64,000 nucleotides of DNA from Naegleria gruberi (lineage: Eukaryota): assembly GCA_000004985.1 (NCBI GenBank), contig GG738920.1, one strand, 5' to 3'. Made by a program: the position numbers and the translations under genes. The notes beneath the pieces are model-generated. The model did not search any database, had not been told where the DNA came from, and worked only from the letters and a program-made list of their open reading frames with translations. Below, piece by piece: positions 2,335-56,334 of the stretch (position 1 is its first letter; the number at the start of each line of letters is the position of its first letter).

Positions 2335-4104
2335 TGACTTCTTTTAGTCAATTAAGACAATTAAGGATATAACAATAGAAAAAGTTGACAATCTCAAAAT
2401 AAACTTTATTATCATGTAGTATATCTCAAATAAAGTGGACTGTATTCAAATTATATACTTTTATTTCAAGAAATGCATTCAGTAGATAGTACTTGGTGAT
2501 CTGTCAATGTGGCTAGAAATCTGAAAGGTCCAGAACCATATAAATAGAATCCTGAATCGAATACTCTTGATGCGTAGAACAATCTGAGAAAGTATCATAC
2601 TCATGACTCAATTCCTCTTGATCATTGTTGTATTTTTCATTCATGCGTAGATAAAAATAACGTACATTCAAAAATACTCTCAAAAATTCTACGCATCAAT
2701 ATGAATGACAACCAAATTGATTGAATATAAGTCCGTCCGCAAAGTGACGCAAACTAACGGAATATCGAAATCGTTACTACTTTCGAATAGCTTGAAAACA
2801 ACACATTTACACCACAACTCGATAACTAGATAAGAACTATATACTTTTTTTAAAACTTTACTAAAAAAACCAACAAAATACCCAAACGGCGCTTAATAAC
2901 CCTATATCAGATCATAAAGACCATGGAGCCACAGAAGAAACAAATCAAAACAACACGTTTCCAAACCCTTCAACCCAACCATCATAACTTGATATATATA
3001 AATATTTAACAATTTCACATCAGCCGTATATTGTGCCCCATTACCATCACCATCTTTTGACATCATTTGTGATATATATTGTTAATGTATTTAAGGAGAA
3101 AAGCTTAATAAATAGGGGTTGACATGGGATCCAAACCCTAAGGAAATATAAGGAAAGTTACCACTCTCAAAATAAATGATAATATCGTGTTCTACATCTC
3201 AAATAAGGTGGACTTTCATCAAATTATATGTTTTCATTTCAAGAAATGTATCCAGTAGATAGTACATGGTGATTTGTCAGGGTGGATTGATGGAAATCTG
3301 AAGGGTCCAGAAACAACTCCATTTTCACTGAAATTGATATCATGATATGTAGACACTCTAATTAGCATATAATATCAATTTCATGAATATTGGCTCAGTA
3401 GATATTGAGTTGTCAACTCTATCACTATACTATAAAACTTTGACATAAATTCAAAGATTATGCTCTAAATCACTTATTTTATATGAAACTAGTCTAGAAT
3501 TGATAACACAAATTCTGTACACCATTTATATACATCTATACAAGTTTAGAAACAATTCATGATACTTTCATTCAGTCAATCAGTAAATGTTCAATGTCAA
3601 TAGTGATTATATCCAATTGTACACACTGTCTCAATGAAAGTATATCCAAACATCATGTAACTTTACCAGATACATTTAGTCACACTGATATACATCTGGT
3701 ATCAATTTTAGTCTGTTAGAATTGAATTCAATATGATAATAATAACAATCTGTCAAATTGTCACATTTCAACATATAGAATGAATACCATCTCAGTCAAT
3801 TTACAAAATATCATACTAGTATCAAAAATGAATACACTTCCCTTGATGAGGAGAACAATCTGAGAAAGTTTTATATTCATGGCTCAATATCTTCAAGTCA
3901 ACTAAGGAACATCTAAGGTAATCAAAAGGGAAGAATCTTAATTCCAAAATTAAATTTTACCATCATGTCAAAATCATTGAATAATGCATTAATTATACAA
4001 GAATAATATATTCAATTGTTATATTCATGTCAGTAATCAGTGATGGTGACACTCNNNNNNNNNNNNNNNNNNNNNNNNNNNNNNNNNNNNNNNNNNNNNN
4101 NNNN

Positions 4105-4468
4105 ACCCAAACCCAAACCCAAACCCAAACCCAACCCAAACCCAAACCCAAACCCAAACCCAAACCCAAACCCAAACCCAACCCAAACCCAAACCCAACC
4201 CCAAACCCAAACCCAAACCCAACCAAAACCAAACCCAAACCCAAACCCAAACCCAAACCCAAACCCAAACCCAAACCCAAACCCAAACCCAAACCCAAAC
4301 CCAAACCCAAACCCAAACCCAAACCCAAACCCAAACCCAAACCCAAACCCAAACCCAAACCCAAACCCAAACCCAAACCCAACCCAACCCCAACCCCAAA
4401 CCCAAACCCAAACCCAAACCCAAACCCAAACCCAAACCCAAACCCAAACCCAAACCCAACCCAAACCC
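4105..4468 (+). repeat. Second telomere-type (CCCAAA)n array of about 364 bp, with some CCCAA/CCCCAA variants
   Basis: Seen directly. It is preceded by a 50-N gap (4055-4104) and followed by the same ~650-bp sequence as array 1. Confidence 0.95.
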
Positions 4469-5247
4469 TGACTTCTTTTAGTCAATTAAGACAATTAAGG
4501 ATATAACAATAGAAAAAGTTGACAATCTCAAAATAAACTTTATTATCATGTAGTATATCTCAAATAAAGTGGACTGTATTCAAATTATATACTTTTATTT
4601 CAAGAAATGCATTCAGTAGATAGTACTTGGTGATCTGTCAATGTGGCTAGAAATCTGAAAGGTCCAGAACCATATAAATAGAATCCTGAATCGAATACTC
4701 TTGATGCGTAGAACAATCTGAGAAAGTATCATACTCATGACTCAATTCCTCTTGATCATTGTTGTATTTTTCATTCATGCGTAGATAAAAATAACGTACA
4801 TTCAAAAATACTCTCAAAAATTCTACGCATCAATATGAATGACAACCAAATTGATTGAATATAAGTCCGTCCGCAAAGTGACGCAAACTAACGGAATATC
4901 GAAATCGTTACTACTTTCGAATAGCTTGAAAACAACACATTTACACCACAACTCGATAACTAGATAAGAACTATATACTTTTTTTAAAACTTTACTAAAA
5001 AAACCAACAAAATACCCAAACGGCGCTTAATAACCCTATATCAGATCATAAAGACCATGGAGCCACAGAAGAAACAAATCAAAACAACACGTTTCCAAAC
5101 CCAACCTTCAAACCCTAGCCCAAAATTATAAACTTATTCAAATATCATTAAATTTTATATCATTCGATTGGAAATGATGAGTAGAACAACGTAGTATATT
5201 TAGTTTTTCAATTTATAAAATATTAACTTTGTAAATAATGTCAGATT

Positions 5248-7300
5248 NNNNNNNNNNNNNNNNNNNNNNNNNNNNNNNNNNNNNNNNNNNNNNNNNNNNN
5301 NNNNNNNNNNNNNNNNNNNNNNNNNNNNNNNNNNNNNNNNNNNNNNNNNNNNNNNNNNNNNNNNNNNNNNNNNNNNNNNNNNNNNNNNNNNNNNNNNNNN
5401 NNNNNNNNNNNNNNNNNNNNNNNNNNNNNNNNNNNNNNNNNNNNNNNNNNNNNNNNNNNNNNNNNNNNNNNNNNNNNNNNNNNNNNNNNNNNNNNNNNNN
5501 NNNNNNNNNNNNNNNNNNNNNNNNNNNNNNNNNNNNNNNNNNNNNNNNNNNNNNNNNNNNNNNNNNNNNNNNNNNNNNNNNNNNNNNNNNNNNNNNNNNN
5601 NNNNNNNNNNNNNNNNNNNNNNNNNNNNNNNNNNNNNNNNNNNNNNNNNNNNNNNNNNNNNNNNNNNNNNNNNNNNNNNNNNNNNNNNNNNNNNNNNNNN
5701 NNNNNNNNNNNNNNNNNNNNNNNNNNNNNNNNNNNNNNNNNNNNNNNNNNNNNNNNNNNNNNNNNNNNNNNNNNNNNNNNNNNNNNNNNNNNNNNNNNNN
5801 NNNNNNNNNNNNNNNNNNNNNNNNNNNNNNNNNNNNNNNNNNNNNNNNNNNNNNNNNNNNNNNNNNNNNNNNNNNNNNNNNNNNNNNNNNNNNNNNNNNN
5901 NNNNNNNNNNNNNNNNNNNNNNNNNNNNNNNNNNNNNNNNNNNNNNNNNNNNNNNNNNNNNNNNNNNNNNNNNNNNNNNNNNNNNNNNNNNNNNNNNNNN
6001 NNNNNNNNNNNNNNNNNNNNNNNNNNNNNNNNNNNNNNNNNNNNNNNNNNNNNNNNNNNNNNNNNNNNNNNNNNNNNNNNNNNNNNNNNNNNNNNNNNNN
6101 NNNNNNNNNNNNNNNNNNNNNNNNNNNNNNNNNNNNNNNNNNNNNNNNNNNNNNNNNNNNNNNNNNNNNNNNNNNNNNNNNNNNNNNNNNNNNNNNNNNN
6201 NNNNNNNNNNNNNNNNNNNNNNNNNNNNNNNNNNNNNNNNNNNNNNNNNNNNNNNNNNNNNNNNNNNNNNNNNNNNNNNNNNNNNNNNNNNNNNNNNNNN
6301 NNNNNNNNNNNNNNNNNNNNNNNNNNNNNNNNNNNNNNNNNNNNNNNNNNNNNNNNNNNNNNNNNNNNNNNNNNNNNNNNNNNNNNNNNNNNNNNNNNNN
6401 NNNNNNNNNNNNNNNNNNNNNNNNNNNNNNNNNNNNNNNNNNNNNNNNNNNNNNNNNNNNNNNNNNNNNNNNNNNNNNNNNNNNNNNNNNNNNNNNNNNN
6501 NNNNNNNNNNNNNNNNNNNNNNNNNNNNNNNNNNNNNNNNNNNNNNNNNNNNNNNNNNNNNNNNNNNNNNNNNNNNNNNNNNNNNNNNNNNNNNNNNNNN
6601 NNNNNNNNNNNNNNNNNNNNNNNNNNNNNNNNNNNNNNNNNNNNNNNNNNNNNNNNNNNNNNNNNNNNNNNNNNNNNNNNNNNNNNNNNNNNNNNNNNNN
6701 NNNNNNNNNNNNNNNNNNNNNNNNNNNNNNNNNNNNNNNNNNNNNNNNNNNNNNNNNNNNNNNNNNNNNNNNNNNNNNNNNNNNNNNNNNNNNNNNNNNN
6801 NNNNNNNNNNNNNNNNNNNNNNNNNNNNNNNNNNNNNNNNNNNNNNNNNNNNNNNNNNNNNNNNNNNNNNNNNNNNNNNNNNNNNNNNNNNNNNNNNNNN
6901 NNNNNNNNNNNNNNNNNNNNNNNNNNNNNNNNNNNNNNNNNNNNNNNNNNNNNNNNNNNNNNNNNNNNNNNNNNNNNNNNNNNNNNNNNNNNNNNNNNNN
7001 NNNNNNNNNNNNNNNNNNNNNNNNNNNNNNNNNNNNNNNNNNNNNNNNNNNNNNNNNNNNNNNNNNNNNNNNNNNNNNNNNNNNNNNNNNNNNNNNNNNN
7101 NNNNNNNNNNNNNNNNNNNNNNNNNNNNNNNNNNNNNNNNNNNNNNNNNNNNNNNNNNNNNNNNNNNNNNNNNNNNNNNNNNNNNNNNNNNNNNNNNNNN
7201 NNNNNNNNNNNNNNNNNNNNNNNNNNNNNNNNNNNNNNNNNNNNNNNNNNNNNNNNNNNNNNNNNNNNNNNNNNNNNNNNNNNNNNNNNNNNNNNNNNNN
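5248..7300. other. Assembly gap of 2053 N inside the repeat block. There are also 50-N gaps at 2087-2136 and 4055-4104
   Basis: Runs of n. The left gap edge ends '...gtcagatt', which continues as 'gtcagattaaaaattat...' in the copy at 7662. The right edge starts 'acgtcccaaacattt', the same 15-mer that precedes the gap at 2087. Confidence 0.95.
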
Positions 7301-10300
7301 ACGTCCCAAACATTTGACTTCTCAAAGTCCATATTTCAAAAGTTAGTACTGACCTGACCTTTATATATCTATCAATACAAGAAATGAAAACATCAAATTT
7401 ACATTATTAATAGATGATAAGAATTATAATCAATGATATAAATCTTCACTAAGTAATATATTAAATAACCCAAATAAATCAACTCTGAATCCTAACCAAA
7501 CCCTTTGAACCTAAAATTGAAATACCAGACCCAATGTTTCAAAGTTCAAACCCTAGCCCAAATTATTGAATATTATATCATTCGATTGTAAATGATGAGT
7601 AGAACAATATATTATATTTAGTTTTTCAATTTATAAAATATTAACTTTGTAAATAATGTCAGATTAAAAATTATAAAATGAAACCATATGAAGAATGATA
7701 ATTTCAAAATCCTTTAATGAGATTATATAGTATATATCTTCACTAACAACATTCATAATCACTCTCATATGAAATTTCTAAACTTCATGTTGGTAGGTAT
7801 AAAAGTATCAAGTGAAAAGGGAAGATGTGAGGTAAAAGAGGTCAACAATAACTTTTGAGTTTCTCATCAAAACATATTAAATCCTAATATGAAAATGTTC
7901 CATTTGATTAGTAAACATCGAATATCAAATTTATTTTCACTTTCATATTTAAAGATTTCTTCCCTCAATCACACATGGTCAACTATGATGAAAAGGATGA
8001 AATCTTGAAAAAAGACCACTATTGAAACTTTACCAACATCATGCAGATGATCTATAATGTTGTAGATTTCAATTTCATATCATAAGAATCAGAAATGGTA
8101 CCATAGGAAAGTAAATGTTGATTTTACAAAGTTGACTGAAAGGAAAGACAAGTCAGATCAGTCTATCACAAACATCACTTCAATCAACAAAATATATATG
8201 AAAATGCTCCATTCAATCCGTAGAGATAGAATATCACGTTTATTTTAACTTTCATATTCATGATTTCATCCCTTTCATACCAACTAGTCAACTATGGACA
8301 TGAATGAAAATCTGGAAAATGACCACTCTATGAAACATTACCATCATGTTCAACATCTCAAATACTGTATATGATTCAAATTTCAGACATTTTGGAGAAT
8401 ATTCTATCTTTCAGTAAGGTAAAGGGTGAAATTTCAAGGTTGTCTTGGAAGATCAGGAGGAAATCTTGAATATAGAAAACCACGCCCTCAATCAACAAAA
8501 TATATCAATCGATTGGAAATCAATAGTACATCTCGAAAACATCATTTATTTTATGATTTGAAATCTCTCCTTTACCTCTTTTGGTCAATTAAGACAATTA
8601 AGGATGATACTATAGGAAAAGTTACCAATCTCAAAATAAATGATAATATCGTGTTCCACATCTCAAATAAAGTGGACTTTCATCAAATTATATAATTTCA
8701 TTTCAAGAAATGCATCCGTTAGATAGTACATGGTGATATTTCAAGGGAATGGATGGAAATCTGAAGGATATAGAAACAACTCCATTTGCACTGAAATTGA
8801 TACCATGATATGTAGACACTCTAATTAGCATATAATATCAATTTCATGAGTATTGGCTCAGTAGATATTGAGTTGTCAACTCTATCATTTTACTATAGAA
8901 CTTTGACATAAAATCAAAGATTATGCTCCAACTCACTTATTTTATATGCAATTAGTCTAGAACTGATAACACACATTCTATACACCATTTATATACATCT
9001 ATACAAGTTTAGAAACAATTCATGATACTTTCATTCAGTCAATCAGTAAATGTTCAATGTCAACACTTAATATATCTTAGTGAACACTCTATCTCAATGT
9101 AAGTACATCCAATCATCCTGTAACTTTACAAATTACGTTTAATCACACTATTATACATCTGGTATCAATTTCACAGTGTTAGAATTGAATTCAATATGAT
9201 AATAATAACAATCTTTCAAAATGTCACAATTCAATATATAGAATATACTCCATCTCAGTCAATTTACAATATATTGTACAAGTATCAAGTATGAATACAC
9301 TCCTCTAGATGAGGAGAACAATCCGAGAAAGTTTCATATTCATGGCTCAGAAAACCCTGATTAAAGACAAAAATGAGTAAAATGACCGAGAATCGATCGC
9401 ACGTCCATTAGTGAACATTGCCATTATACAACCGCTGAGCTAACAGCGCTATAGGTTTTATATCTAAAAATATCTATACAAACAAGAATATGTCGCATGA
9501 CAAATAAGAAGAACATTACTACCACTGCAAATAACAACAAGAATTAAATTATAATTTATTAATAATATTAATTTATTAATAATATTGAAGGGAGAAGTTG
9601 CTCCCTTCCAAATGATGGAAGGGAAGATCCAACTTGATGACCAAGAGGTGATACATCCACCAATCCAATCCAATTACATTATTAAAGCTATCCTAAATTT
9701 CCAATTAATTTTGCAACTTGGTGGAAGTGAGTGCCAAAGGCACCACACCTCCACCATTATAATAACTTCCAAATAAATATTATTCCAATTCCGAAACATC
9801 ATCTTCCAAATAATTCCAATCAATATATATTTTTAAAATTATTATGAAACAACTCCTGATGATATGATGATGATATGATACGATGATGATACGATGAGAT
9901 GATGAGATGATTGAATGAGGAAGAGAGAGGAGACATTACAACATTTTTTTTGTATGTTACTTTTCCAACCGACAATTTAAGAGCATCCGCACTCTCACCT
10001 CCATACAACCAAGACAAGAATGAATCAACTCTTTAATTACCAGCAAGGATTTCCAACAAGAATAATTAAATATTTAATCGGTGATAATTCAATAATTACT
10101 TAGTGAAATCCAAAAGTTGAAACACCAATCGATAGCAAATCATCTCTAGTATGACATATATTTTTTATTGATCAATTTCTGATCATTCTTTTACCTTTCC
10201 CTAGGAATAGTAAAATCGCAATATATTGAGGGAGGAATTGCTGATTATCTCAATAATTATATAACAAACTATACACAATCTATAGCCCACTGGATAGCTG

Positions 10301-38631: not shown

Positions 38632-41255
38632 TTATGCAACATAATTGTATGTCTTGTGATCTTCAACTTCCCTTGATAAAAAGTCTCTTTCAATTAAATT
38701 CTCAATTCTTCTCTTGACTTCTTGAGGGTTTGGTACAAACCTGCTTTGTAGTTGCTTTACAACTTCTGACATGAGTTCATTGTGGTGGAGCTTCTTTCTC
38801 GCTTTCATTACTCTCACAATAACAGCCTCAATAACAGGTTTTCTTTCCAATTCAATCTTGGATTCAGTTTCTTGAACTTCCTCAACAGTTTCCTTGGTGG
38901 AGGTGATGGCTAATCTTACTCTATAATTGGCATTCTTAAAGTCCTGATTCAAGACAAACTTGTGATTATCTTCCAAATTCTTTGTCTTTGGTTCTTTGGA
39001 AAGGATTTTGGTCTTGTTCATACATAAAATTGTAAGAGTCTTTTTTAAATCCTTTTCTGGTATTTGAGTTAATTCCTTAATCTTTGCATAGGTATATTCG
39101 GTATGTTCATTGTACAGCATTAAAATACAAATTTGATAGGTAGAAACGACAAGTTCATGTTTTTCACTCGAAAATCTTGCTGTCAAGATACCATCTCCCA
39201 GACTGGTTTGCCAAGTAAGTTTTCTTCCACTATGTACATGATTGTAAAATTTGGCAAATGACTCACAGCACAAATTAAGATCTGCTGGGAGAATGATGTT
39301 ATTGAGGGTATAGGCAGGCCAGAAAGAGTGAGTGAGAATATTTACATTAAAGTCCATTCTTTCTGGTTTGAGTTTGAATGCGTCATGTTGTTGATATTGT
39401 TCGTTGGTTTGGGCTGATATTTTCATATCATTGAACATGCCTTCAATTTTTGATGTAAAACTGTATCCACATTCCTTTTTCATTTTCAAGATGAACATTT
39501 TCTCAGAGTTTGCTTGATGTCCCTTGGAGAGTAATCTCTTTGAAAGATGAACCTTGTAGTAATTCTCAAAAATATCCTTGTCTCTCAAGAATCTGAAAAG
39601 AGCCATAGCATCCTCCATGATTGGTTCCAATTCTTGTTCTGAATCACCAAGAGTTCTGATTGTATTGTCCAAATAGAGGGAAAGATATTCTGAAACTCTC
39701 TTTTGTCTGGTACCATCTGAAAAGATGGAAAATCCTTCCTTTTGAGCTTGTTCAAATTTTGAATTGCTCTTGAAAGATTCTCGAGTAATTCTGTCGTATT
39801 TTCTCTTTTGTTCTAATAGACCTTCAATGAAGGTTACTGCAGATCCCTGTAATTTCTCTTCATCCATTACATAGGCAATACCAACATCGGTAATGTATTG
39901 CTTGTAGAGCTTTATCATGATGGATAAATGTTCTTCTTCATTACCCAAAAACAAATTGTACATTCTGTGCAATTCTGAAATCTTGTCATCCTTGAGGAAG
40001 GAAATGTATCCACTTGGACTCTCTGTAATAGTGTCCAAATGTTTGGTAATCATTTCTTGTCGTAAGATTTTTGAAATTTTTGGTTTTGTTGTAAAAGAGA
40101 GATAGTACTGTACACGGTTATCCTCCTCTCTTAATCTTTCATCGACTAGTTTCAAATAGTCGGTAATTGATGTCTGTGCCAATAAATCACGGGACAATTG
40201 CAAGTAGTATTGAGCACTGGTTTCTAAAAATGGTTCTTCCAATACATCATTATAACAGTTCATTTCACATAGCATTCTCACTACTTTTTTCAACAATAAT
40301 CTATCTACATATTCTCCACCTCTTTCCTTTCCAATCATTTCAATTACAATATTTTTAATTTTAACTCCTGATTGACTTTGATAAATAACTACTCTTTTGA
40401 ATATTTCTACACCATTATCATAGACGAATAATGTGTGTTTAACAGGTGTTTGATTTGCACCATTTCCACTACTTTGAGATTGTTGTTGCTGTAATTGTTT
40501 GAGAGCATAATTTGTATTCAAATACATCAAAACACTGCTCACTACAGATGTTTCTGTCTTGTATTCCTCCCAAACATTGCATATTGTCTTGAGAAATAAT
40601 TCATCAGGACACTTTTTCAAAACCTATTATTAATTCCGATCATCAATTAGATAAAAATTAAAATTTGCACACTGATTAATAAAAGGAGAAATCAAAACTT
40701 ACACTACTGAGAATGAATTCTACTTGCTCCAACATGCAGGCCTCTACATTTTCATAGAGTGATTCGCCATGTCTATTCAATACTATTTTATAGGTATTTC
40801 TATACAATTCCTCATAGGAAAGTTCAGAGCTCTTGTTGTGATAAATTTGTTGAATAGCTTGCTTGAGAAGTGTCCAAGTAGTGGAAAAGAAAGCCTCTGT
40901 TGTTGTACTCTCTGCTCGGGGAGCTTTAATCTCAAATTTCTTTCCTATTAATTGCCAAATTCAAAACAAGAAATAAACATGTTGTATACACAACCACCAT
41001 CATTGTGATCCAAAATTATTGATCATAAATTTGTATATTTTCATCATCCGATCCACACAATTCCAAAAATAACAAAATAACAATTCATGATCATCATCAA
41101 TGGTCATAATGGTAATACAATATTAAATAAAACATTAAAATTCCGCCATCAAATGTTTGTCATTGTGATCAAAATGAACAACAAGGGAATTCAGAACAAT
41201 TTTTAGAACAAAATCAGAAAGAGAGCGAGAACTTACCCGTTTGAACTTTTCTCAT
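38632..41255 (-). CDS. Cullin. Model is join(38632..40623,40703..40944,41237..41255) on the minus strand
   Basis: The N-terminus 'MRKVQTG|KKFEIK...FFSTTWTLLKQAIQQIYHNKSSELSYEELYRNTYKIVLNRHGESLYENV' is a cullin repeat 1 signature. The C-terminus 'VVKQLQSRFVPNPQEVKRRIENLIERDFLSREVED' is the neddylation/winged-helix region. Introns are 79 and 292 nt with GTAAGT donors. Confidence 0.8.
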
Positions 41256-41471: not shown

Positions 41472-43227
41472 TTAAGGATTTGACTGATTGGTCTTCCAAG
41501 GATTATGAAACGATGAAAATGATCTGAAATCTTCACGAGAAGCAAATATTTGACATCCAAAGAATGCTTCCTTCGCATCACAAGATTCAATGATGGTGAG
41601 ATTTGAAAGGATTTTCTGAATGGAAATAAGAAAATCCTTTTCTAAATTCACAATAATGAGGTGAGTGGTTGTTTCATTCGTGATGATACTTGGCAGTAGG
41701 TCAATACATTCTGTAGAAATGGTTTCTAATTTTGGAGCACTGAATGAGTGGATATCGTCAGCAAGTGATTGATTATTCGAAACAACACTAATTGTAACAT
41801 TTACTCCACAATTCATGTCACCTACATCCTTTTCTATTACAATGCAATTGGGAGTGTTATGATAGTGAGCTAGCATGACATGTCTAGATACGAAACAACA
41901 CGCAGGCACTCTAGAATAAAGAACATAATCACTGAAATTTGAAAAGTAATCAGAAATGAGAAAACGTGGAGGAATTGAAATCACCAGTGAATGACCTTTT
42001 GATAGCTGAACTTTCGAATAAATTTCAGAAAAGAATCCATTCACATCTTCTCTCCTGTCCAATTTGTGATATCTATCATTTTTGTACATTGAATTAAATA
42101 AGAAAGTTGAACCAGGATTCAAACCAAGATAAAAGTAAACTTGCATTTCTGAACTTTAGTTGTTGGTTGACTGATAAAGAAAATTAAACTTACTGATCTA
42201 AAAGTTTGAAAAAGTATGGCTCAACAGAACGAGGTGTTTTCTCATTGAATAATTGAAAGAATGTCATCTCACTTGTAATATCAATACATAGTGGTGAAAA
42301 TAAGCGTTCTGTGAAGTTTCGAATATTATTGCAACAGTAATACCAATCTGTAAAGTCATTCCCTTCCCAAAATGAGTTAAAAGAAGTATCAGTCCAATAT
42401 CTCTGATAGATGGGTTTCCATACATGTGATGATCGTCCTGCACGATTCAAATTTCTATTCAATGGTAAAATCAATGAGCATATTTCACTTTCCTTCAGAT
42501 ATGAGAAAATAATTGCGAGTATTTCATCTGGAAGTTGTTCGAATTGATTTTCATATGTGTTTCTTTTCAATTCATCTTGTGGTCTGTTCAATAGATATTC
42601 GAATGTCTTGCCACTTTCAACGAGAAACTGTTGGGCAGCTCTATAACTTTTTGAAGCTGCCATGACGTCGCCATTCTTTTCCTGTTCCCTACTCTTCCTC
42701 AATAATTGCTCAATTTTCTTGTAGATTTCTGATTGATCGAATTTGTCATCTCTTGGACATGAGCTTGCATCCACTCTAAAATACATTATTTCAGTTCTAA
42801 GAATAAACTTGGTTCCCTTCCTAACAGAACAACCTTCATGGGCAAAATCTTGATTGAATAGAACAAGTTTACCCATGCTAGGTTTCACAGTATGAACGAG
42901 ATTATAGTAGGAGGAACTATTTCCATCCATCATCTCTGGATCATTGTAAAATCGCGTCTCTCCTCCTTTAAAATCATCATTCAAATAAATTAGTAAGGTA
43001 TAGATACTTCTTTCATTATTGTTTCTTTTGAATTGACCATCAGTGTGAATTTTGAAATATTCTCCGATTTGGTACTTGTTAAATCGCATCATTTCATTGA
43101 CTCCACAAGCTTTCCAAGTTCCTGCACTATCCACACCGAAAGGAGTTACCATTTTACTAATAGCATCCAAATCAATCCTAGTTTTCAGCTTATCAAATAT
43201 TAAACTTGCAAGATCGGCATCAATCAT
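41472..43227 (-). CDS. Prolyl 4-hydroxylase (2OG-Fe(II) oxygenase) fused to an F-box. Proposed model is join(41472..42153,42194..43227), about 571 aa, joined by a 40-nt intron. The alternative is two genes, 42190..43227 (P4H-F-box, 345 aa) and 41472..42146 (hypothetical, 224 aa)
   Basis: 'HTDGQ...FAHEGCSVRKG...ILRTEIMY' is the His-x-Asp...His, Arg/Lys P4H motif set. 'LPDEILAIIFSYLKESEICSLILPLNRNLNRAGRSSHVWKPI' is F-box-like. The TAA stop of the upstream ORF lies inside a GTAAGT donor ('gatca|gtaagt...aaag|ttcagaaATG'), and splicing keeps the frame into the downstream ORF. Confidence 0.5.
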
Positions 43228-43420
43228 CAACTCTCGGGTTGAATTTCTATACTCTTTTGGATATTCATCTTGAATTTCCTTAAAATGCTCCTCGGAGTTA
43301 TATTGTAAGATAGAGATTTATAAATTTCCTTGCAAGAGCCAGTTGGTAAGCAAAAGGATTGTTCCACTTTGCTATCTGGGATATTTAATAAATGAGGAAT
43401 ATTTTCAAAGTGAATAAGAT

Positions 43421-43492
43421 TCCCGTGTAGTCCAATGGCTAGGATACCTGGCTTTCACCCAGGAGGTCCGGGTTCAATTCCCGGCATGGGAG
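43421..43492 (+). tRNA. tRNA-Glu (anticodon UUC)
   Basis: 'TCCCGTGTAGTCCAATGGCTAGGATACCTGGCTTTCACCCAGGAGGTCCGGGTTCAATTCCCGGCATGGGAG' folds as a canonical cloverleaf with T-loop GGTTCAATTCC. Confidence 0.9.
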
Positions 43493-43599
43493 AATCATTT
43501 TGTTCATCTGGTGTTTTAATTATTTTGACATGCCAATAATTACAATTATTATCACTCAAGAAAAACCTTGAATTGATGAACAGCTTATCGTTTTCTTAT

Positions 43600-43673
43600 T
43601 CAATATTAAGATTTTGAGAAATTTCAAGGGGATTTTTCTCTTATTTCAATATTAAGATTTTGATGATTTGAAT
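43600..43673 (+). promoter_or_regulatory. Tandemly duplicated 5S upstream element ('cgttttcttattcaatattaagattttga' then 'ttttctcttatttcaatattaagattttga')
   Basis: The same ~30-bp TATA-like element occurs once upstream of 5S copy 3 (about 56453-56495 on the minus strand). Copy 1 has a different TATA-like 'tttttatatgaag' at the same distance. Confidence 0.5.
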
Positions 43674-43911: not shown

Positions 43912-44889
43912 TCATTGTGCAAATGCTAACTTAAAATAACAACCAGATTGCTTAACAGCTGTAAGAACAACCTCTCTATCAACAGCCAATTCCTCAGAAG
44001 CATACATTCGAGCTTGGTAATCTCTCTTGACAGCTGTCATGACTATTTCTCTATCATTCTTCAATTCATCAGATGCAAACTCGAGTACTTTACCATATTG
44101 CTCCACAGCCAACATTACAATTTTCCTATCATTCCTACTTTCTTCAGAAGCATTTTCAAGTGCCCAACCATTTTGCTTAACAGCTTCCATAACAATTTCT
44201 CTGTCACTTTTCAATTCTTCAGAAGCAAATTCCAGTGAACAACCTTTTGATTTAACTGCTGCCAAGACAATTTCTCTATCTTTTGTTATCTCTTCTGAAG
44301 CAAACTGGAGTGCATAACCACAGTGCTCAACTGCAAACTTGACAATTTCTCCATCTTTTTGAAAATCAGTGGCATATCCTAAAGCATCAACACTTCGTTG
44401 AACTGCCAATAAGACAAATGGTCGATAATTCCACAAGTTGAACAATGAAGCAAGCCAACACATTTCGCTATTGCTGAATAGAGAAATGCACAAATCACAA
44501 AGTTGAAATCTTTCTTTTTTACTGTCAATTCCTGATTCTTGAATCAATTGAATTGCTTCTTCTTCTTGTTCGAAACCGAGTTTCAATATGCGATAGGCAA
44601 ATTTGCGGACTTTCTCCTTGTTTCGATCATCTCTACCACAAAATAAGTGTTGTTTCAGATAAGTGGATGCGATATTCGAATCAAGAGTTAGTATTACGGA
44701 ATCTGAATTATCAATATTTTGAAATGAGAATGATTCAGTGTTTGTTTTTTGTATCTTTGAGGATCGACGTTCGTCCTCACTTTCGAATAGTTTTGAAGAA
44801 TCCTTTCTTTTCATTTTTTCCAGTAAATGATTATTTAAAGCATTTAACAAAATTGTAAAATGGCTATTCGATTTTGTAAAACAATTCAT
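43912..44889 (-). CDS. Repeat protein resembling DUF4116, 325 aa, with about six ~38-aa 'DREIVLxAVKQNGxALEFASEELKxDREIV' repeats
   Basis: The periodic repeat is obvious in the translation. Single exon. It ends 120 bp from 5S copy 2. Confidence 0.6.
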   Translation of the reverse strand: MNCFTKSNSHFTILLNALNNHLLEKMKRKDSSKLFESEDERRSSKIQKTNTESFSFQNIDNSDSVILTLDSNIASTYLKQHLFCGRDDRNKEKVRKFAYRILKLGFEQEEEAIQLIQESGIDSKKERFQLCDLCISLFSNSEMCWLASLFNLWNYRPFVLLAVQRSVDALGYATDFQKDGEIVKFAVEHCGYALQFASEEITKDREIVLAAVKSKGCSLEFASEELKSDREIVMEAVKQNGWALENASEESRNDRKIVMLAVEQYGKVLEFASDELKNDREIVMTAVKRDYQARMYASEELAVDREVVLTAVKQSGCYFKLAFAQ

Positions 44890-45700: not shown

Positions 45701-48700
45701 ATGCACAACTCCTCACCACAATTCCTTAATAACATAACAAGGAACATCACAGGGAGAAGAAATTCGCTTTTCCTTTTTATGATGATGACTGTCATCATGA
45801 TCCTAATAACAAATTCATTAGAAATAACTGGTAGTGCAAATAATCAGATGAAACCACTCTCTTACAAGATATCGACAATCGCTGGTCAGGGTTTGATTTC
45901 GGAACAAGATAATTTGAAAGCAAGTTTTGGTTTTGCATCAATGATCTTTATGAATAGGAATGAGAAGGGAGAACAAGTTGAAGATATACTTCTTGTTGAT
46001 GATATCAATTTAGCTGTTAGGAGATTAACTTTTAGAAAGAATGATCAGAATGAGTTCATACCTTCGACAGTAAAAGTATTGGCTGGTGGTATTCCTATGG
46101 AACCTTCACTAGCATATATGAAACCTAAGTTATTGACAATTTCTGAAGGAGGTGATGATGATGAGAATGGTAGAGGAGAAATTTATGTGTTTGAGGAGAG
46201 GAATGGAGGAATGATCAAGAAGATTGACAGGAAGGGAGATTTGCAATTAATTGCCAAATCCTCGAGTGATTCATTCGTATGTGAAGAAGTGAGCTTGGAT
46301 AAGGCAAATTGGGTCTCAATTTCGGATATGAAATATTCAAGAGAAGGAATGGAGGAGGTTTTATATCTTGTTGATTCTAAAAAGATTATTTTGAGAGCTT
46401 CCCTAACAAGAAGAACTATCAAAGCAATAACTAAATGTGTAAAAGATATTACAAATGCTATAATTGATAGTGCCGATCCTTCAGATTTCATTGAAATTAA
46501 TAGTATTTTTGTAAGAAAGAATAGCGAAAATAAGGTAATTCTATATGTTGCTGACAGTAACTCATTGAAAAAGATTGAGCAAGATGGAAATGTATCCAAA
46601 ATTGCTGGAAATGGAAAAGATTACCTGACTGATGCAGATGTATCTACCAACGCACTAAACACAACAGTTTATCCAACCAAGATATTTGTAAATTCTGGAG
46701 GAGAAATTTTATTCACAGAAATGAAGTTTAACAAAATCAGAAAGTTAGACATTCATGGAAATGTTGTATCTATCCAAAGAAATCCGTTTGTCCTCTCGAA
46801 GGGAGTGCTTCAGTCACCTCTCACTAATAATATTTACTTTGAGGAACATAATATAATTTACAAAATGACAGATAAGGGAAATGAACCAATGTTTGGAAAT
46901 GGAACTATTAACAGTCTTAATGGAGTACATGCCATGCAAGCAAGAATTAATCCAATTTCAGTACAAGTTTCATCCAAATCTGGAAAGGATATTATTACTG
47001 TTTTGGATTCTGAGGAATATTTCAAATCAAGAGTAATTGATGAAAATCAAATTATTCAAACAGTAATAGGAGGAGGAATATATAATTTATTGGATATTGA
47101 AGGGATTGATGCATTGAGTGTTCAATTTGTAAAGAATGTTAAAAATTCATTCAGATCCAACAATGGAGATCAATATATTGTGCTGAGCTCAGAATTATTC
47201 AAAATCAATGATGAAGGTAAACTGGTTAGAGTTATTGGATCTGGTTCAAAATTTGCAGGAGATGGTCATAGTGCTTTGTCAGCTATCCTTAATGAACCAA
47301 GTGGTGTTTTTTATTCGAAAACATTAGGAAAAACCTTTATTGCAGATTCAAAGAATGACAGAGTTAGAGTTATTTCTAAAGAGGGTGTTATCTCAACTAT
47401 CATTGGTAAATTGGAGGGCACTGTAGATAACCCAAGAGATGTGATGGAAAGAAATGGATATTTGTACTACGCTGAAAGATCAATTATTTGCAAAATTGAT
47501 TTGGTATCGAATGAACTAGAAGTTATGGTTGGTAATAGACAAACTTCTTTTAATGGTGATGGAAAGAAAGGAAATGAAACATCTATTGGTCCAGAGAGTA
47601 TTTATGTGACTGAAGAAGGTGATATTTACTTTGCTGACATTTCAAATCATCGAATTAGAAAGTGGACAAGAAAAACCGATCTAGTTTCAACAATTGCTGG
47701 AACTGGTGTGCAAGGCTCCAGTGAAGATGGAATTCTGGCAACAAATTCCACAATTGACTCACCATCTGGTGTCTATTTGAATAGAAAGGGAGAGGTTTAT
47801 TTTGTGGAAAGTGAGAGCCATAAAATCAGAAAGATTACATCTGAAGGCAAACTCTTAACCCTCTTCCAAGTGAGATCTCCACACCGATTGATTGTTACAA
47901 GTAATGACGAAGTTATTGTTTCACATGATGCATTCATTACCAAATATTCGAATGGTGAGGTAACAGCAGTTGCAGGATCTAGAATGAAATCGTATCCCGA
48001 ATTGGACGATGATCCATTCGAAACATATTTTGGTTCAATTGGTGGTCTTTCATTTGGAGAGACAGAATCGGATTTACTCTTTGCCAATCCAAAATTTGAT
48101 TTAATTAGAAAGATTTCAAATGGATCCCTATCGAATGTTGCAGGTAGTCATGGAGACGGATTGAATGCACTCGAAGCTAGATTTATGGATATTTCCTCTG
48201 TGGTAGTGAGTCCAGACAATGAGTTGTTCATTGCCGATTCAATGGATCATACTATTAGAAAAGTTTCTAGTGACGGTATTGTTTCAACCATTGCTGGTGT
48301 CTCACAAATTCATGGCTATAACTTATATGATCCACAAGAGAGCATTCTCAATGGACCTACTTCACTTTCTAGTGCAAAAAATGGTGATTTATTCTTCATC
48401 GATCAAAAGAATTATGTCATTCGAAAGATTTCCAATGGAATAGTTACCACAATTATTGGAACACCAAACGAGAGATGCGATATGGAAGAAGGAAAGAGAG
48501 GAAGAGAAACCTGTTTGAGTATGCCACAAAGTCTCGCAGTTTCACCAGGAGGAGATGCTCTTGTTTTTTCTGATCTCTCAACAATAGGAATTTTCCATTA
48601 CAACCTCAATGATGAGAATGCAGTTATTAGACGAATTGCTGGATTTGAAAATGTTATAGGATATAATGGAGATGGAGAAGCCACTACAACATTGATTTCA

Positions 48701-49168
48701 CATGTGCCAAGTTTGGCATTCTCTAACGATGGTTTATCCGTCTATTTTGTTGATAGCAGTAATAATCTTATTAGAAAGCTATCACCTTATTGTCCAGAGG
48801 ATTATGAACTCTCTGAAAAATTACAACAATGCACTGAGAAAGTCATTCCACATCCTAACGAGAGTCCAAAGAAACCAAAACCTCATTTCTCAATGTTCAT
48901 TCCAGGGAATTCTAACATGAGTGGAATGATTAGTGAAAATCTTATGGCTCTACTTCTAGTAACAATTGGATCTGTACTCATTTTGTCAATCATTCTGGCA
49001 GGAGCTATTTATTACTTGCTCAAGAATAGAGAAAGTCAAAAACATTATCAGAAAGTTGAAAGAGATGAAATTCCTGAAGATGTGGATGATAATGATATAG
49101 GAAAATTCTCACTTGGAGCTGATCTTGAAGAAGAAGAAGAAGAAACAGAGGATATTGAAATGATTTAA
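45701..49168 (+). CDS. Type I membrane protein with many NHL repeats (six-bladed beta-propeller type), 1155 aa, with an N-terminal signal or anchor and an acidic cytoplasmic tail
   Basis: Recurrent 'AD(S/I)xNHRIRK(I/W)' NHL motifs (for example 'ADSKNDRVRVIS', 'ADISNHRIRKW', 'VESESHKIRKIT', 'ADSMDHTIRKVS', 'IDQKNYVIRKIS'). TM helix 'LMALLLVTIGSVLILSIILAGAIYYLL'. Single exon. Confidence 0.7.
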   Translation: MHNSSPQFLNNITRNITGRRNSLFLFMMMTVIMILITNSLEITGSANNQMKPLSYKISTIAGQGLISEQDNLKASFGFASMIFMNRNEKGEQVEDILLVDDINLAVRRLTFRKNDQNEFIPSTVKVLAGGIPMEPSLAYMKPKLLTISEGGDDDENGRGEIYVFEERNGGMIKKIDRKGDLQLIAKSSSDSFVCEEVSLDKANWVSISDMKYSREGMEEVLYLVDSKKIILRASLTRRTIKAITKCVKDITNAIIDSADPSDFIEINSIFVRKNSENKVILYVADSNSLKKIEQDGNVSKIAGNGKDYLTDADVSTNALNTTVYPTKIFVNSGGEILFTEMKFNKIRKLDIHGNVVSIQRNPFVLSKGVLQSPLTNNIYFEEHNIIYKMTDKGNEPMFGNGTINSLNGVHAMQARINPISVQVSSKSGKDIITVLDSEEYFKSRVIDENQIIQTVIGGGIYNLLDIEGIDALSVQFVKNVKNSFRSNNGDQYIVLSSELFKINDEGKLVRVIGSGSKFAGDGHSALSAILNEPSGVFYSKTLGKTFIADSKNDRVRVISKEGVISTIIGKLEGTVDNPRDVMERNGYLYYAERSIICKIDLVSNELEVMVGNRQTSFNGDGKKGNETSIGPESIYVTEEGDIYFADISNHRIRKWTRKTDLVSTIAGTGVQGSSEDGILATNSTIDSPSGVYLNRKGEVYFVESESHKIRKITSEGKLLTLFQVRSPHRLIVTSNDEVIVSHDAFITKYSNGEVTAVAGSRMKSYPELDDDPFETYFGSIGGLSFGETESDLLFANPKFDLIRKISNGSLSNVAGSHGDGLNALEARFMDISSVVVSPDNELFIADSMDHTIRKVSSDGIVSTIAGVSQIHGYNLYDPQESILNGPTSLSSAKNGDLFFIDQKNYVIRKISNGIVTTIIGTPNERCDMEEGKRGRETCLSMPQSLAVSPGGDALVFSDLSTIGIFHYNLNDENAVIRRIAGFENVIGYNGDGEATTTLISHVPSLAFSNDGLSVYFVDSSNNLIRKLSPYCPEDYELSEKLQQCTEKVIPHPNESPKKPKPHFSMFIPGNSNMSGMISENLMALLLVTIGSVLILSIILAGAIYYLLKNRESQKHYQKVERDEIPEDVDDNDIGKFSLGADLEEEEEETEDIEMI

Positions 49169-55164: not shown

Positions 55165-55393
55165 TGTAAGATTGTCTGATGTCTTGATGAATAAACTTGG
55201 GGATTGTTCCCTTCTTCATTGTCAATCGAGTTTGTGAAATAATAATTGATAAATGACTTATCAGATAGGAGAATTAAACAATTGACTGCAATTATTTCAA
55301 GATCAGCTAAAAAAGTTAGAATACAATTGATTTTTTCCAAATCCTGTGTGAGTATCTATTTCCATTCAAAAAAGACGTGAAACCAAAATGATT

Positions 55394-55465
55394 CTCCCAT
55401 GCCGGGAATTGAACCCGGACCTCCTGGGTGAAAGCCAGGTATCCTAGCCATTGGACTACACGGGA
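55394..55465 (-). tRNA. tRNA-Glu (UUC), identical to the 43421-43492 copy, in inverted orientation
   Basis: Exact reverse complement of the + copy. About 35 bp of 5' flank is also conserved. Confidence 0.9.
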
Positions 55466-56334
55466 ATCTTATTCTCTTTAAAAATATTCCTCATCTATAA
55501 AATAGCATTGGTTGTAACGAAAAATTAATTATTCCAATCATTTAAGTTCTTTCTAGATCAGAAAGCATACAGTGTAGTAGTTCCTTACAAAAATCTAAAC
55601 CAAAACCATCTTGAAAAACAAGCTCTATACCTAGTCCAGAGTCTCAAGAAGAAATTGGACGAAAATTTATAAAGTTTTAAGAAAAGATAAAGTTGCAATA
55701 TTTCTGAGTTTTCTGGATATTCAAAAAGTGAAATATTCCGAATGTTAAATTGAAATACTTATTACCAGGTTAGCTAGCCATTCTTAAAATTCGTCATCAT
55801 ACATGCTCGGAATTTGACAAATACTCAATTTTGCTCTGATTGAGATTTCTTTGTGCAATGATTTTTCAATTAATTAAAAGAGTTAGGTGGCTCCTAATCT
55901 GACGGTTTGTGCAATGTCTGATTGAAACCAAATCAAAGTGAGCAATTAAGCTCAAACCCTGATCCCTACAAAAAATTGAGTTAATAGTAGATGCAACCCG
56001 TGAGCTGCTTTCAGCTATTAAACTGAAAAGAACAGATACTACACTCGATCAAAGCCAATTGGCCGAGAAAGATGGTTTTGAGAATTGCATAAGGAACAGA
56101 GTTTTTATTCTGTTGGTTGTGGAGCGAAGAATGGCAAAATGTTTGTGGTATTTTAATAAATTTTAATGCCTTGTTCGACTATTGATATTGAACATGTAGC
56201 GAATCTTAATAATCAATATTTATGATGGAGCAGTTCAATCAGAACTTGGAAAGAATGTGAGAAGCAAACTTGACCAACAATTAAGGGGGATTGATAAGTA
56301 AACGTGAACTAGTGAAAAAACAAATAAACAAAAA

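Follow-up and report, generated by a model that had tools for sequence, protein, structure and literature searches.

A predicted Naegleria gruberi gene that joins a prolyl-hydroxylase-like oxygenase, an F-box and a divergent actin fold

This study concerns a locus on the minus strand of a 64,000-nucleotide (nt) stretch of Naegleria gruberi DNA (assembly GCA_000004985.1, contig GG738920.1; hereafter the window), the GC content of which is ~33%. Annotated N. gruberi proteins of a single scaffold (218,836 bp) match six long open reading frames of this stretch exactly. A sequence-only reading of positions 41472-43227 had reported a prolyl 4-hydroxylase (P4H) domain followed by an F-box-like motif in one open reading frame (ORF), and had suggested that this ORF continues through a 40-nt intron into a second one. 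On the basis of profile searches, structure models and a comparison with related loci, the encoded protein very probably has an N-terminal hydroxylase that retains its active site, connected by a linker to an F-box, and then an actin-fold domain at the position of a substrate receptor. The gene model is described first, followed by the domains and the family to which they belong, and finally by the explanations that may account for the locus and the known systems with which it can be compared.

Gene model and splice junction

The two ORFs (346 and 224 amino acids (aa); Table 1) are separated by 43 nt, counted from the apparent stop of the first to the next ATG. Removal of the 40-nt intron, inside which the apparent stop (TAA, 42192-42190) falls, fuses them in frame and gives a product of 571 residues. 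All features described in the sequence-only reading were found where it had placed them, and since the two ORFs do fuse in frame, its observation was correct as stated. The resulting open frame of 572 codons, in DNA of 33% GC with an estimated stop rate of ~7.5% per random codon, is far longer than expected by chance.

Comparative support for the predicted intron is strong. Splicing rebuilds the codon CA/T for His (H345), which is conserved in at least 90% of a 20-member family alignment, and shortly after the junction follows G359, which is invariant in that alignment. Intron position and phase are common to four loci, namely, I) the window; II) a metagenomic Naegleria-like contig (L002), which reads CA/GTAAGT...(65 nt)...TACAG/T and continues into a 203-aa ORF on the same strand; III) an annotated N. 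lovaniensis gene of 743 aa (CA/GTAGGT, 67 nt); and IV) an annotated N. fowleri gene of 744 aa (CA/GTAAGT, 93 nt as annotated). Without splicing, all four read Gln and then a stop, and splicing yields His in the three loci that were checked in detail. In addition, one actin-fold domain straddles the splice junction, as seen when the family alignment is aligned with rabbit actin by hhalign. The shared position and phase, the near-invariant His and the domain that spans the junction together bear out the proposed in-frame continuation.

The main-exon protein is 55-61% identical to its orthologues. Its closest homologues are P0001 from contig L002 (447 aa, 61% identity) and P0002, an N. gruberi paralogue on another scaffold (451 aa, 55%). 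The database models of both end in ...G(V/G)Q and a stop, at the position that matches ...LLDQ and the stop in the window, and are probably truncated by read-through into the same GTAAGT intron, gene callers having taken the TAA inside it as the stop. On L002 (1606-3632), the actin-fold part is called as a separate gene of 203 aa. At the N. fowleri locus (L003, 5527-5619), an AACAG acceptor resembling that of N. lovaniensis lies ~26 nt before the annotated one; this offset is not a multiple of three, and the annotated acceptor may differ from the one that is used.

Table 1. Features of the locus and its surroundings (positions in the window)
Feature	Position	Strand	Evidence
Putative decayed remnant of ancestral N-terminal coding (EKNPLEISQNLNIE, in-frame stop, ENDKLFINSRFFLSDNNC)	43530-43632	-	Weak; Smith-Waterman
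tRNA-Glu(UUC) gene	43420-43493	+	ARAGORN
In-frame conserved coding upstream of the first ATG (EHFKEIQDEYPKEYRNSTREL)	43228-43290	-	tblastn, nucleotide homology, family conservation
Main ORF, 346 aa	43230-42190	-	ORF list
Main exon, ATG 43227 to splice donor (oxygenase, helical linker, F-box, first ~35 actin-fold residues)	42194-43227	-	ORF list, translation
Core of prolyl-hydroxylase-like 2OG/Fe(II) oxygenase, residues 48-144 (incl. H61, D63, H130, K140, R144)	42796-43086	-	Pfam PF13640
Helical linker between oxygenase and F-box, consensus S..LEK.GD...A...Y..AQ	42553-42735	-	Model and family conservation
F-box (EQLPDEILAIIFSYLKESEICSLILPLNRNLNRAGRSSHVWKPIYQR)	42400-42540	-	Pfam F-box-like, F-box
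Start of predicted actin-fold domain (FSPLCIDITSEMTFFQLFNEKTPRSVEPYFFKLLD and first two bases of His codon), ~actin residues 7-40	42194-42300	-	hhalign
Predicted phase-2 spliceosomal intron, 40 nt, GTAAGT...AAG (GTAAGTTTAATTTTCTTTATCAGTCAACCAACAACTAAAG)	42154-42193	-	Sequence, comparison with relatives
Second exon, coding	42153-41475	-	
Second ORF, 224 aa	42146-41472	-	ORF list
Rest of predicted actin-fold domain, residues 345-560	41508-42153	-	
C-terminal tail (HNPWKTNQSNP) and TAA stop (41474-41472)	41472-41507	-	Translation, direct reading of DNA
Cullin gene, Cul3/Cul4-like, ATG ~41254	38632-41254	-	
DUF4116-repeat protein gene, 239 bits, immediately upstream	43912-44889	-	
1155-aa ORF beyond the DUF4116 gene	45701-49168	+	

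Domains of the predicted protein and its family

The oxygenase domain was recognized by Pfam in the main ORF as 2OG-FeII_Oxy_3 (PF13640; 54.7 bits, E 2.1e-14, threshold 27), a family of 2-oxoglutarate (2OG)- and Fe(II)-dependent oxygenases; the same ORF contains a weak match to Pox_C4_C10 (PF03336, 23.2 bits) and gave no Pfam match to JmjC or Cupin. The catalytic codons can be read directly from the DNA (H61, 43047-43045; D63, 43041-43039; H130, 42840-42838; R144, 42798-42796). These four residues and K140 are invariant in the 20-member family alignment (A6), and the iron-binding triad HxD...H (H61, D63, H130) is invariant in a 60-member alignment too. By analogy with PHD2 and P4H, R144 (in KFILRTEIMY), on the last core strand, would be the basic residue that binds the C5 carboxylate of 2OG. 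An AlphaFold model of window positions 43290-42547, of moderate confidence (predicted local distance difference test, pLDDT, 64), has a double-stranded beta-helix fold resembling solved prolyl hydroxylases. When it was compared with the PDB using Foldseek, the best match was Pseudomonas PPHD (4j25, E 2.8e-6), and further matches included PiuC, Bacillus anthracis P4H, Phytophthora P4H, Dictyostelium PhyA, PBCV-1 collagen P4H, Tpa1, PHD2, OGFOD1, and vaccinia C16; a sequence search of the PDB gave one weak match, again B. anthracis P4H (E 0.03). Because the best structural matches are prolyl hydroxylases, the modeled oxygenase sits in a prolyl-hydroxylase-like clade, and its resemblance to PhyA, the hydroxylase of Skp1, does not exceed that to the other matches.

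Between the oxygenase and the F-box lies a linker, modeled as two long helices (model residues 188-225), with a motif that is conserved across the family. The F-box motif itself (LPDEILAIIFSYL) fits LPxE(I/L)L..I(F/L) and is encoded in the same exon as the oxygenase. In relatives, the corresponding segment reaches as much as 45.7 bits with Pfam F-box and 43.5 bits with F-box-like; among the 60 long relatives, 38 have an F-box-like match and 29 an F-box match.

The C-terminal domain, which the sequence-only reading had left as unknown, is a divergent actin/actin-related protein (Arp) fold. With the window protein as master of the 20-sequence family alignment, hhalign against rabbit actin gave a probability of 99.2% (E 1.9e-19) in an alignment of 312 columns that pairs window residues 310-560 with residues 7-360 of actin. 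Since the alignment starts at residue ~310 (FSPLCIDITSE..., 42300), the domain already begins in exon 1. This link emerged only via more distant relatives and the 20-sequence profile: single-sequence searches with the C-terminal region of the window found nothing useful in Pfam or among PDB sequences, Pfam Actin (PF00022) did not match this region, the second ORF had no Pfam match of any kind, and a 4-sequence profile reached actin with a probability of only 2%. Pfam Actin does match the C-terminal parts of the orthologues in N. lovaniensis and N. fowleri (E 6.6e-7), more distant relatives with 50-75 bits (threshold 27), and 27 of the 60 long representatives with E<1e-3 (best E 9e-36). An AlphaFold model of the F-box and C-terminal region of the N. 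lovaniensis orthologue (pLDDT 50 overall, 70-87 in the second lobe) retrieved almost exclusively actins or Arps among its best 50 Foldseek matches (best E 4.6e-8, ~285 aligned columns). Most of subdomain 4 (~actin 180-270) is missing from the window domain; not all four subdomains are present. A globular domain of this kind after the F-box agrees with the substrate-receptor position that had been assigned to this region from the sequence.

A full-length profile search of 1.84 billion representatives returned 8,128 matches, 625 of them below 1e-30, and the 20-sequence alignment, run against a set of 5.8 billion proteins, returned the same five proteins as before. In a Pfam scan, the oxygenase was present in 60 of 60 long representatives, and the usual architecture in the top long matches was 2OG-FeII_Oxy_3, F-box, and Actin. 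Members with all three domains come from Arcella intermedia, the chytrids Nowakowskiella and Rhizophlyctis rosea, Willaertia magna, N. fowleri, and N. lovaniensis (with at least four paralogues); Choanoeca flexa was counted among them, its Actin match being weak (E 0.0026). The architecture thus occurs in Heterolobosea, Amoebozoa, chytrids, and a choanoflagellate, and because the Arcella and Choanoeca sequences are from transcriptomes, the three domains reside on single transcripts there. For the foraminiferan Bolivina argentea (P0030) and one Nowakowskiella protein, Pfam detects the oxygenase and the F-box but no third domain; with the family profile, matches were also obtained in Cavenderia fasciculata and Dictyostelium purpureum. 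In some members, e.g., P0023 and others in alignment A9, the oxygenase is preceded by extra N-terminal NADAR, Macro, or rhodanese domains, ankyrin repeats, or a RanBP zinc ribbon, and NADAR and Macro point to ADP-ribose-related signaling in some lineages.

All named family members carry automatic names only. A description of a P4H-F-box-actin protein was not found in the full-text literature searched, and F-box proteins are absent from the Dictyostelium actinome paper. The locus is one divergent member of a large, uncharacterized, database-visible family. The sequence-only reading is upheld in its P4H domain, for which the Pfam match is significant and the HxD...H motif and basic residue are intact and invariant, and in its F-box-like motif, for which relatives score well above the Pfam threshold. 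Structure prediction for the C-terminal region, made on the N. lovaniensis orthologue, gave actin- and Arp-like matches at low model confidence, and orthologues with the same fusion were found across protists and chytrid fungi. That the protein was not recognized as a described family agrees with the literature searched, yet the fusion is the standard architecture of its family and not specific to this locus.

The 5' end, proposed function and alternative explanations

On balance, the explanation favored in this study, mechanism included, is that the locus is a single minus-strand gene of N. gruberi, the product of which has at least 571 residues and combines the oxygenase, the F-box and a compact actin/Arp fold. 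The F-box would dock the protein on Skp1 and Cul1 in a Skp1-Cul1-F-box (SCF)-type ubiquitin ligase. By a pairing like that of Arps with actin, the domain in the receptor position would most plausibly recruit actin itself, an Arp, or a protein that binds actin. The oxygenase would use O2, 2OG, and Fe(II) to hydroxylate a protein in the complex, namely, the bound partner, an SCF subunit, or the protein itself, and ubiquitylation, or the stability of the adaptor, would then depend on oxygen and metabolic state. Taken separately from the anatomy, this sequence of docking, recruitment, and O2/2OG-dependent hydroxylation is tentative.

The lower end of the locus proposed from the sequence, 41472, stands; the upper end, 43227, does not, as conserved in-frame coding runs on to ~43290. 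The additional segment belongs to the EYPxxYRNxxR block of the oxygenase, the E, Y, R, and R of which are conserved in at least 90% of the family. Matches of orthologues in tblastn extend to 43284-43287, nucleotide similarity to L002 starts abruptly at ~43286, and, going upstream from ATG 43227, the frame reaches a TAA (43320-43318) without a further ATG. Orthologues are longer at the N-terminus by ~90-100 residues, which include the LSxEEC..LI helix and the EYPxxYRNxxR block. As judged from these comparisons, 43227 does not appear to be the true 5' end, and the gene would start upstream or be rearranged. Further upstream, a putative remnant of the ancestral coding sequence, interrupted by a stop (Table 1), aligns with residues 50-81 of the paralogue P0002 at a Smith-Waterman score of 39, which 3% of random window segments reach. 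Another upstream match, CMNRDMAV, was rejected as a remnant, 19% of random segments scoring as high. Hand-built 5' exons, which combined the donors GTAGCC (43680) or GTAATT (~43543) with acceptors at 43291, 43279, and 43270, were not convincing either, as each model gave a first exon of nine residues, a stop, or no start codon.

Either an unrecognized exon is spliced in near 43291, or the gene is a 5'-truncated paralogue that starts at 43227. The tRNA-Glu(UUC) gene, ~190 nt upstream of the ATG at 43227, separates the putative remnant from the conserved coding; an identical copy is found at 55393-55466 (-). Together, these features suggest that the locus is an old paralogue in which the ancestral N-terminal ~90 residues were disrupted and the tRNA-Glu gene now occupies that region. 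The tRNA gene may have arrived with the rearrangement that truncated the hydroxylase gene. A 13-codon upstream ORF on the minus strand (MNIQKSIEIQPES and a stop; 43267-43229) stops 2 nt short of ATG 43227 and, in a transcript that begins further upstream, would hinder initiation at this ATG.

Besides the decayed, stop-containing sequence ahead of the conserved coding and this upstream ORF, several observations weigh against the favored explanation. The N. gruberi annotation has no protein for positions 41472-43227, and there is no near-identical protein among 5.8 billion protein clusters. The family-conserved N-terminal part of the oxygenase (a strand and the LSxEEC..LI helix) is absent from the open frame. 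The intron is the shortest of the set (40 nt vs. 65-93 nt) and ends in AAG, not in CAG or TAG, and splicing at a CAG that lies 5 nt further downstream would cause a frameshift and a truncated protein; the two introns of the adjoining cullin gene measure ~80 and ~290 nt and both read GTAAGT...TAG. The F-box of the window marginally misses the Pfam thresholds (F-box-like, 24.1 vs. 24.3 bits; F-box, 15.7 vs. 20.5 bits), so that the hidden Markov model search sustains the F-box in the aligned relatives and falls just short in the window copy. In the Naegleria clade, the motifs for nucleotide binding have degenerated to CIDITSE at phosphate-1 (reference motif DxGS/G), EKDVGD at phosphate-2 (DxGxG; EKDVGDMNCG in the window), and IIVNLE at the adenosine site (GG); other family members retain D.GS and TGG. 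Actin-like behavior can thus not be assumed, and the Naegleria-clade domain is probably a nucleotide-free binding module rather than an ATPase. The structure models are of low to moderate confidence (pLDDT 50 and 64) because both underlying alignments are shallow (4-6 rows). Finally, the substrate, Skp1 binding, and catalysis are wholly inferred.

The most serious alternative to the proposed function, which is nevertheless unlikely, is modeled on Dictyostelium JcdI/Fbxo13, a JmjC dioxygenase for which binding of the F-box to Skp1 was shown experimentally (PMC9485057). Here, the three-domain protein would be real, yet its F-box would mainly tie the enzyme to Skp1, to keep it soluble or to control its abundance, rather than make it a substrate receptor, and the oxygenase would act independently of ubiquitylation. 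O2-sensing by JcdI indeed needed catalysis and not the F-box, and co-expression of Skp1 was needed for its solubility (PMC9485057); moreover, the oxygenase is the most conserved part of the present family, found in all 60 representatives compared with ~38 that have a detectable F-box. What distinguishes the family from JcdI, which has no obvious receptor domain, is the dedicated globular domain behind the F-box, in the canonical receptor position, and the order oxygenase, F-box, actin fold is kept across four eukaryotic supergroups.

Somewhat less probable still is that the locus is a non-functional, decaying paralogue, i.e., that an insertion or rearrangement bearing the tRNA-Glu gene destroyed the 5' coding sequence and left the open frame as a relic that is no longer expressed. 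This would account for the missing annotation, the abrupt end of homology at ~43286, the weak, stop-containing remnants upstream, the lack of an ATG ahead of the conserved EYPKEYRN block, the unusually short intron with its weak acceptor, and the degenerate actin motifs. It sits poorly with 572 codons that are still open in 33% GC DNA and with the retention of all invariant catalytic residues and of the family-specific H345, G359, and G544. Furthermore, in both halves the window copy has diverged from the N. lovaniensis outgroup as much as the intact relatives have: identity is 44.4% for the window copy vs. 45.6-48.5% for the intact relatives over 338 columns, and 28.0% vs. 24.7% over 186 C-terminal columns. 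Outgroup identity on a par with the relatives argues against rate acceleration in the window copy, and since decay has gone much further in the upstream remnant than in the body of the gene, the body would have stayed under selection after the disruption.

The idea, hinted at in the sequence-only reading, that the tethered hydroxylase modifies Skp1 itself, in cis after F-box docking and in the manner of PhyA in Dictyostelium and Toxoplasma, is improbable. The oxygenase shares its Pfam family with PhyA and PHD2, and Dictyostelium PhyA (6t8m) is among its structural matches (rank 23), but that match is not closer than those to bacterial PPHD, PiuC, B. anthracis P4H, or Phytophthora P4H, and nothing specific links the domain to Skp1. 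According to literature from the West laboratory, Skp1 bound to an F-box protein is reportedly a poor substrate of PhyA, which counts against Skp1 as the target. Hardly tenable is a pair of separate genes, a P4H-F-box protein ending at TAA 42192-42190 and a second protein of 224 aa with its own start at ATG 42146. In the DNA both ORFs read as complete, and the database models for P0002 and P0001 stop at the same point, but those models merely read through the same GTAAGT intron (ending ...G(G/V)Q), the ORFs are only 43 nt apart, the actin-fold domain would be severed at ~residue 40, and the annotated N. lovaniensis and N. fowleri genes as well as the transcriptome-derived Choanoeca and Arcella proteins are continuous.

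Oxygen sensing via SCF is known in protists from PhyA-dependent hydroxylation/glycosylation of Skp1 and from the dioxygenase F-box protein JcdI. A second widespread class of F-box proteins, with an intact prolyl hydroxylase of the PHD/P4H type and an actin fold as putative receptor, would add a testable branch, and this branch could tie oxygen or 2OG levels to the actin cytoskeleton, on which Naegleria and its relatives, the pathogen N. fowleri among them, rely for crawling and phagocytosis. A wider conjecture, rated as doubtful, is that of an ancient module (Heterolobosea, Amoebozoa, chytrids, choanoflagellates, and possibly Rhizaria) that was lost in animals, plants, and yeasts, in which an actin-fold SCF receptor would owe its O2/2OG dependence to the tethered hydroxylase; the module would then sense oxygen and metabolites directly, with actin or actin-binding proteins as its targets in amoeboid cells. 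For annotation, it is of practical relevance that this locus is missing from the N. gruberi gene set. A total of 78 actins and Arps has been given for N. gruberi (PMC7594500), and some of these may be F-box actin-fold proteins of the present family.

The neighboring cullin gene begins 218 base pairs downstream of the stop of the target gene, on the same strand. Its adjacency was considered as functional support for SCF and rejected, the cullin being Cul3/Cul4-like (Cul3, 403 bits; Cul4B, 386; Cul1, 276) and not Cul1; the adjacency is probably coincidental. The exact products of the DUF4116 and 1155-aa ORFs are absent from the protein collection, which indicates that public gene models differ from the simple ORFs. 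Elsewhere, the window contains three assembly gaps, seen as runs of N (2087-2136, 4055-4104, and 5248-7300); the low GC and the six-frame ORFs at 5200-7346 are artifacts caused by the largest of them. At 4105-4468, abutting the gap at 4104, the hexamer ACCCAA (TTGGGT on the other strand) is repeated about 62 times in tandem and forms a telomere-like repeat inside the scaffold.

Comparison with known systems

With PHD-type prolyl hydroxylases such as PPHD, B. anthracis P4H, PhyA, PHD2, and OGFOD1/Tpa1, the oxygenase shares PF13640, the HxD...H motif and the basic 2OG-binding residue, and these enzymes are its best structural matches. They differ in that they stand alone or have other partner domains, none of them being joined to an F-box or an actin domain; identity to the window domain is only 14-26%, and the window copy is without the N-terminal elements of the fold. 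Compared with Arps (Arp4, Arp5, Arp6, Arp8, Arp1, and Arp11), the window domain is fused behind an F-box, measures ~250 residues, has largely lost subdomain 4, and has degenerate phosphate-binding and adenosine motifs in the Naegleria clade; it is not an orthologue of any numbered Arp. A likeness to the poxvirus C4/C10 (C16) proteins is seen in the weak PF03336 match and in the structural match to the N-terminal domain of vaccinia C16 (rank 43). The PHD2-like domain of C16 is catalytically inactive and acts by binding PHD2, whereas the window domain retains the full catalytic set.

In KDM2A and KDM2B (FBXL11 and FBXL10), which are found in animals and fungi, an N-terminal Fe(II)/2OG oxygenase is followed by an F-box and a C-terminal protein-interaction module. 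The domain order is the same as in the locus protein, and an oxygenase is likewise built into a Skp1-binding adaptor. The KDM2 oxygenase, however, is a JmjC histone demethylase and not of the PHD/P4H type, the C-terminal module consists of leucine-rich repeats instead of an actin fold, KDM2 proteins also carry CXXC domains and PHD fingers, and there is no sequence relationship outside the F-box. JcdI/Fbxo13 and JcdH (JmjD6-like and conserved in protists) are similar in being protist F-box proteins with an O2-dependent non-haem dioxygenase; they differ in having the F-box N-terminal to JmjC, in lacking an actin-fold domain, and in belonging to another oxygenase clade. Since oxygenase-bearing F-box proteins are known from KDM2A/B and from JcdI/JcdH, the concept is not unprecedented. 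The closest analogues of the N. gruberi locus are KDM2A/B and Dictyostelium JcdI, to which the predicted protein is analogous without being a member of the JmjC class.

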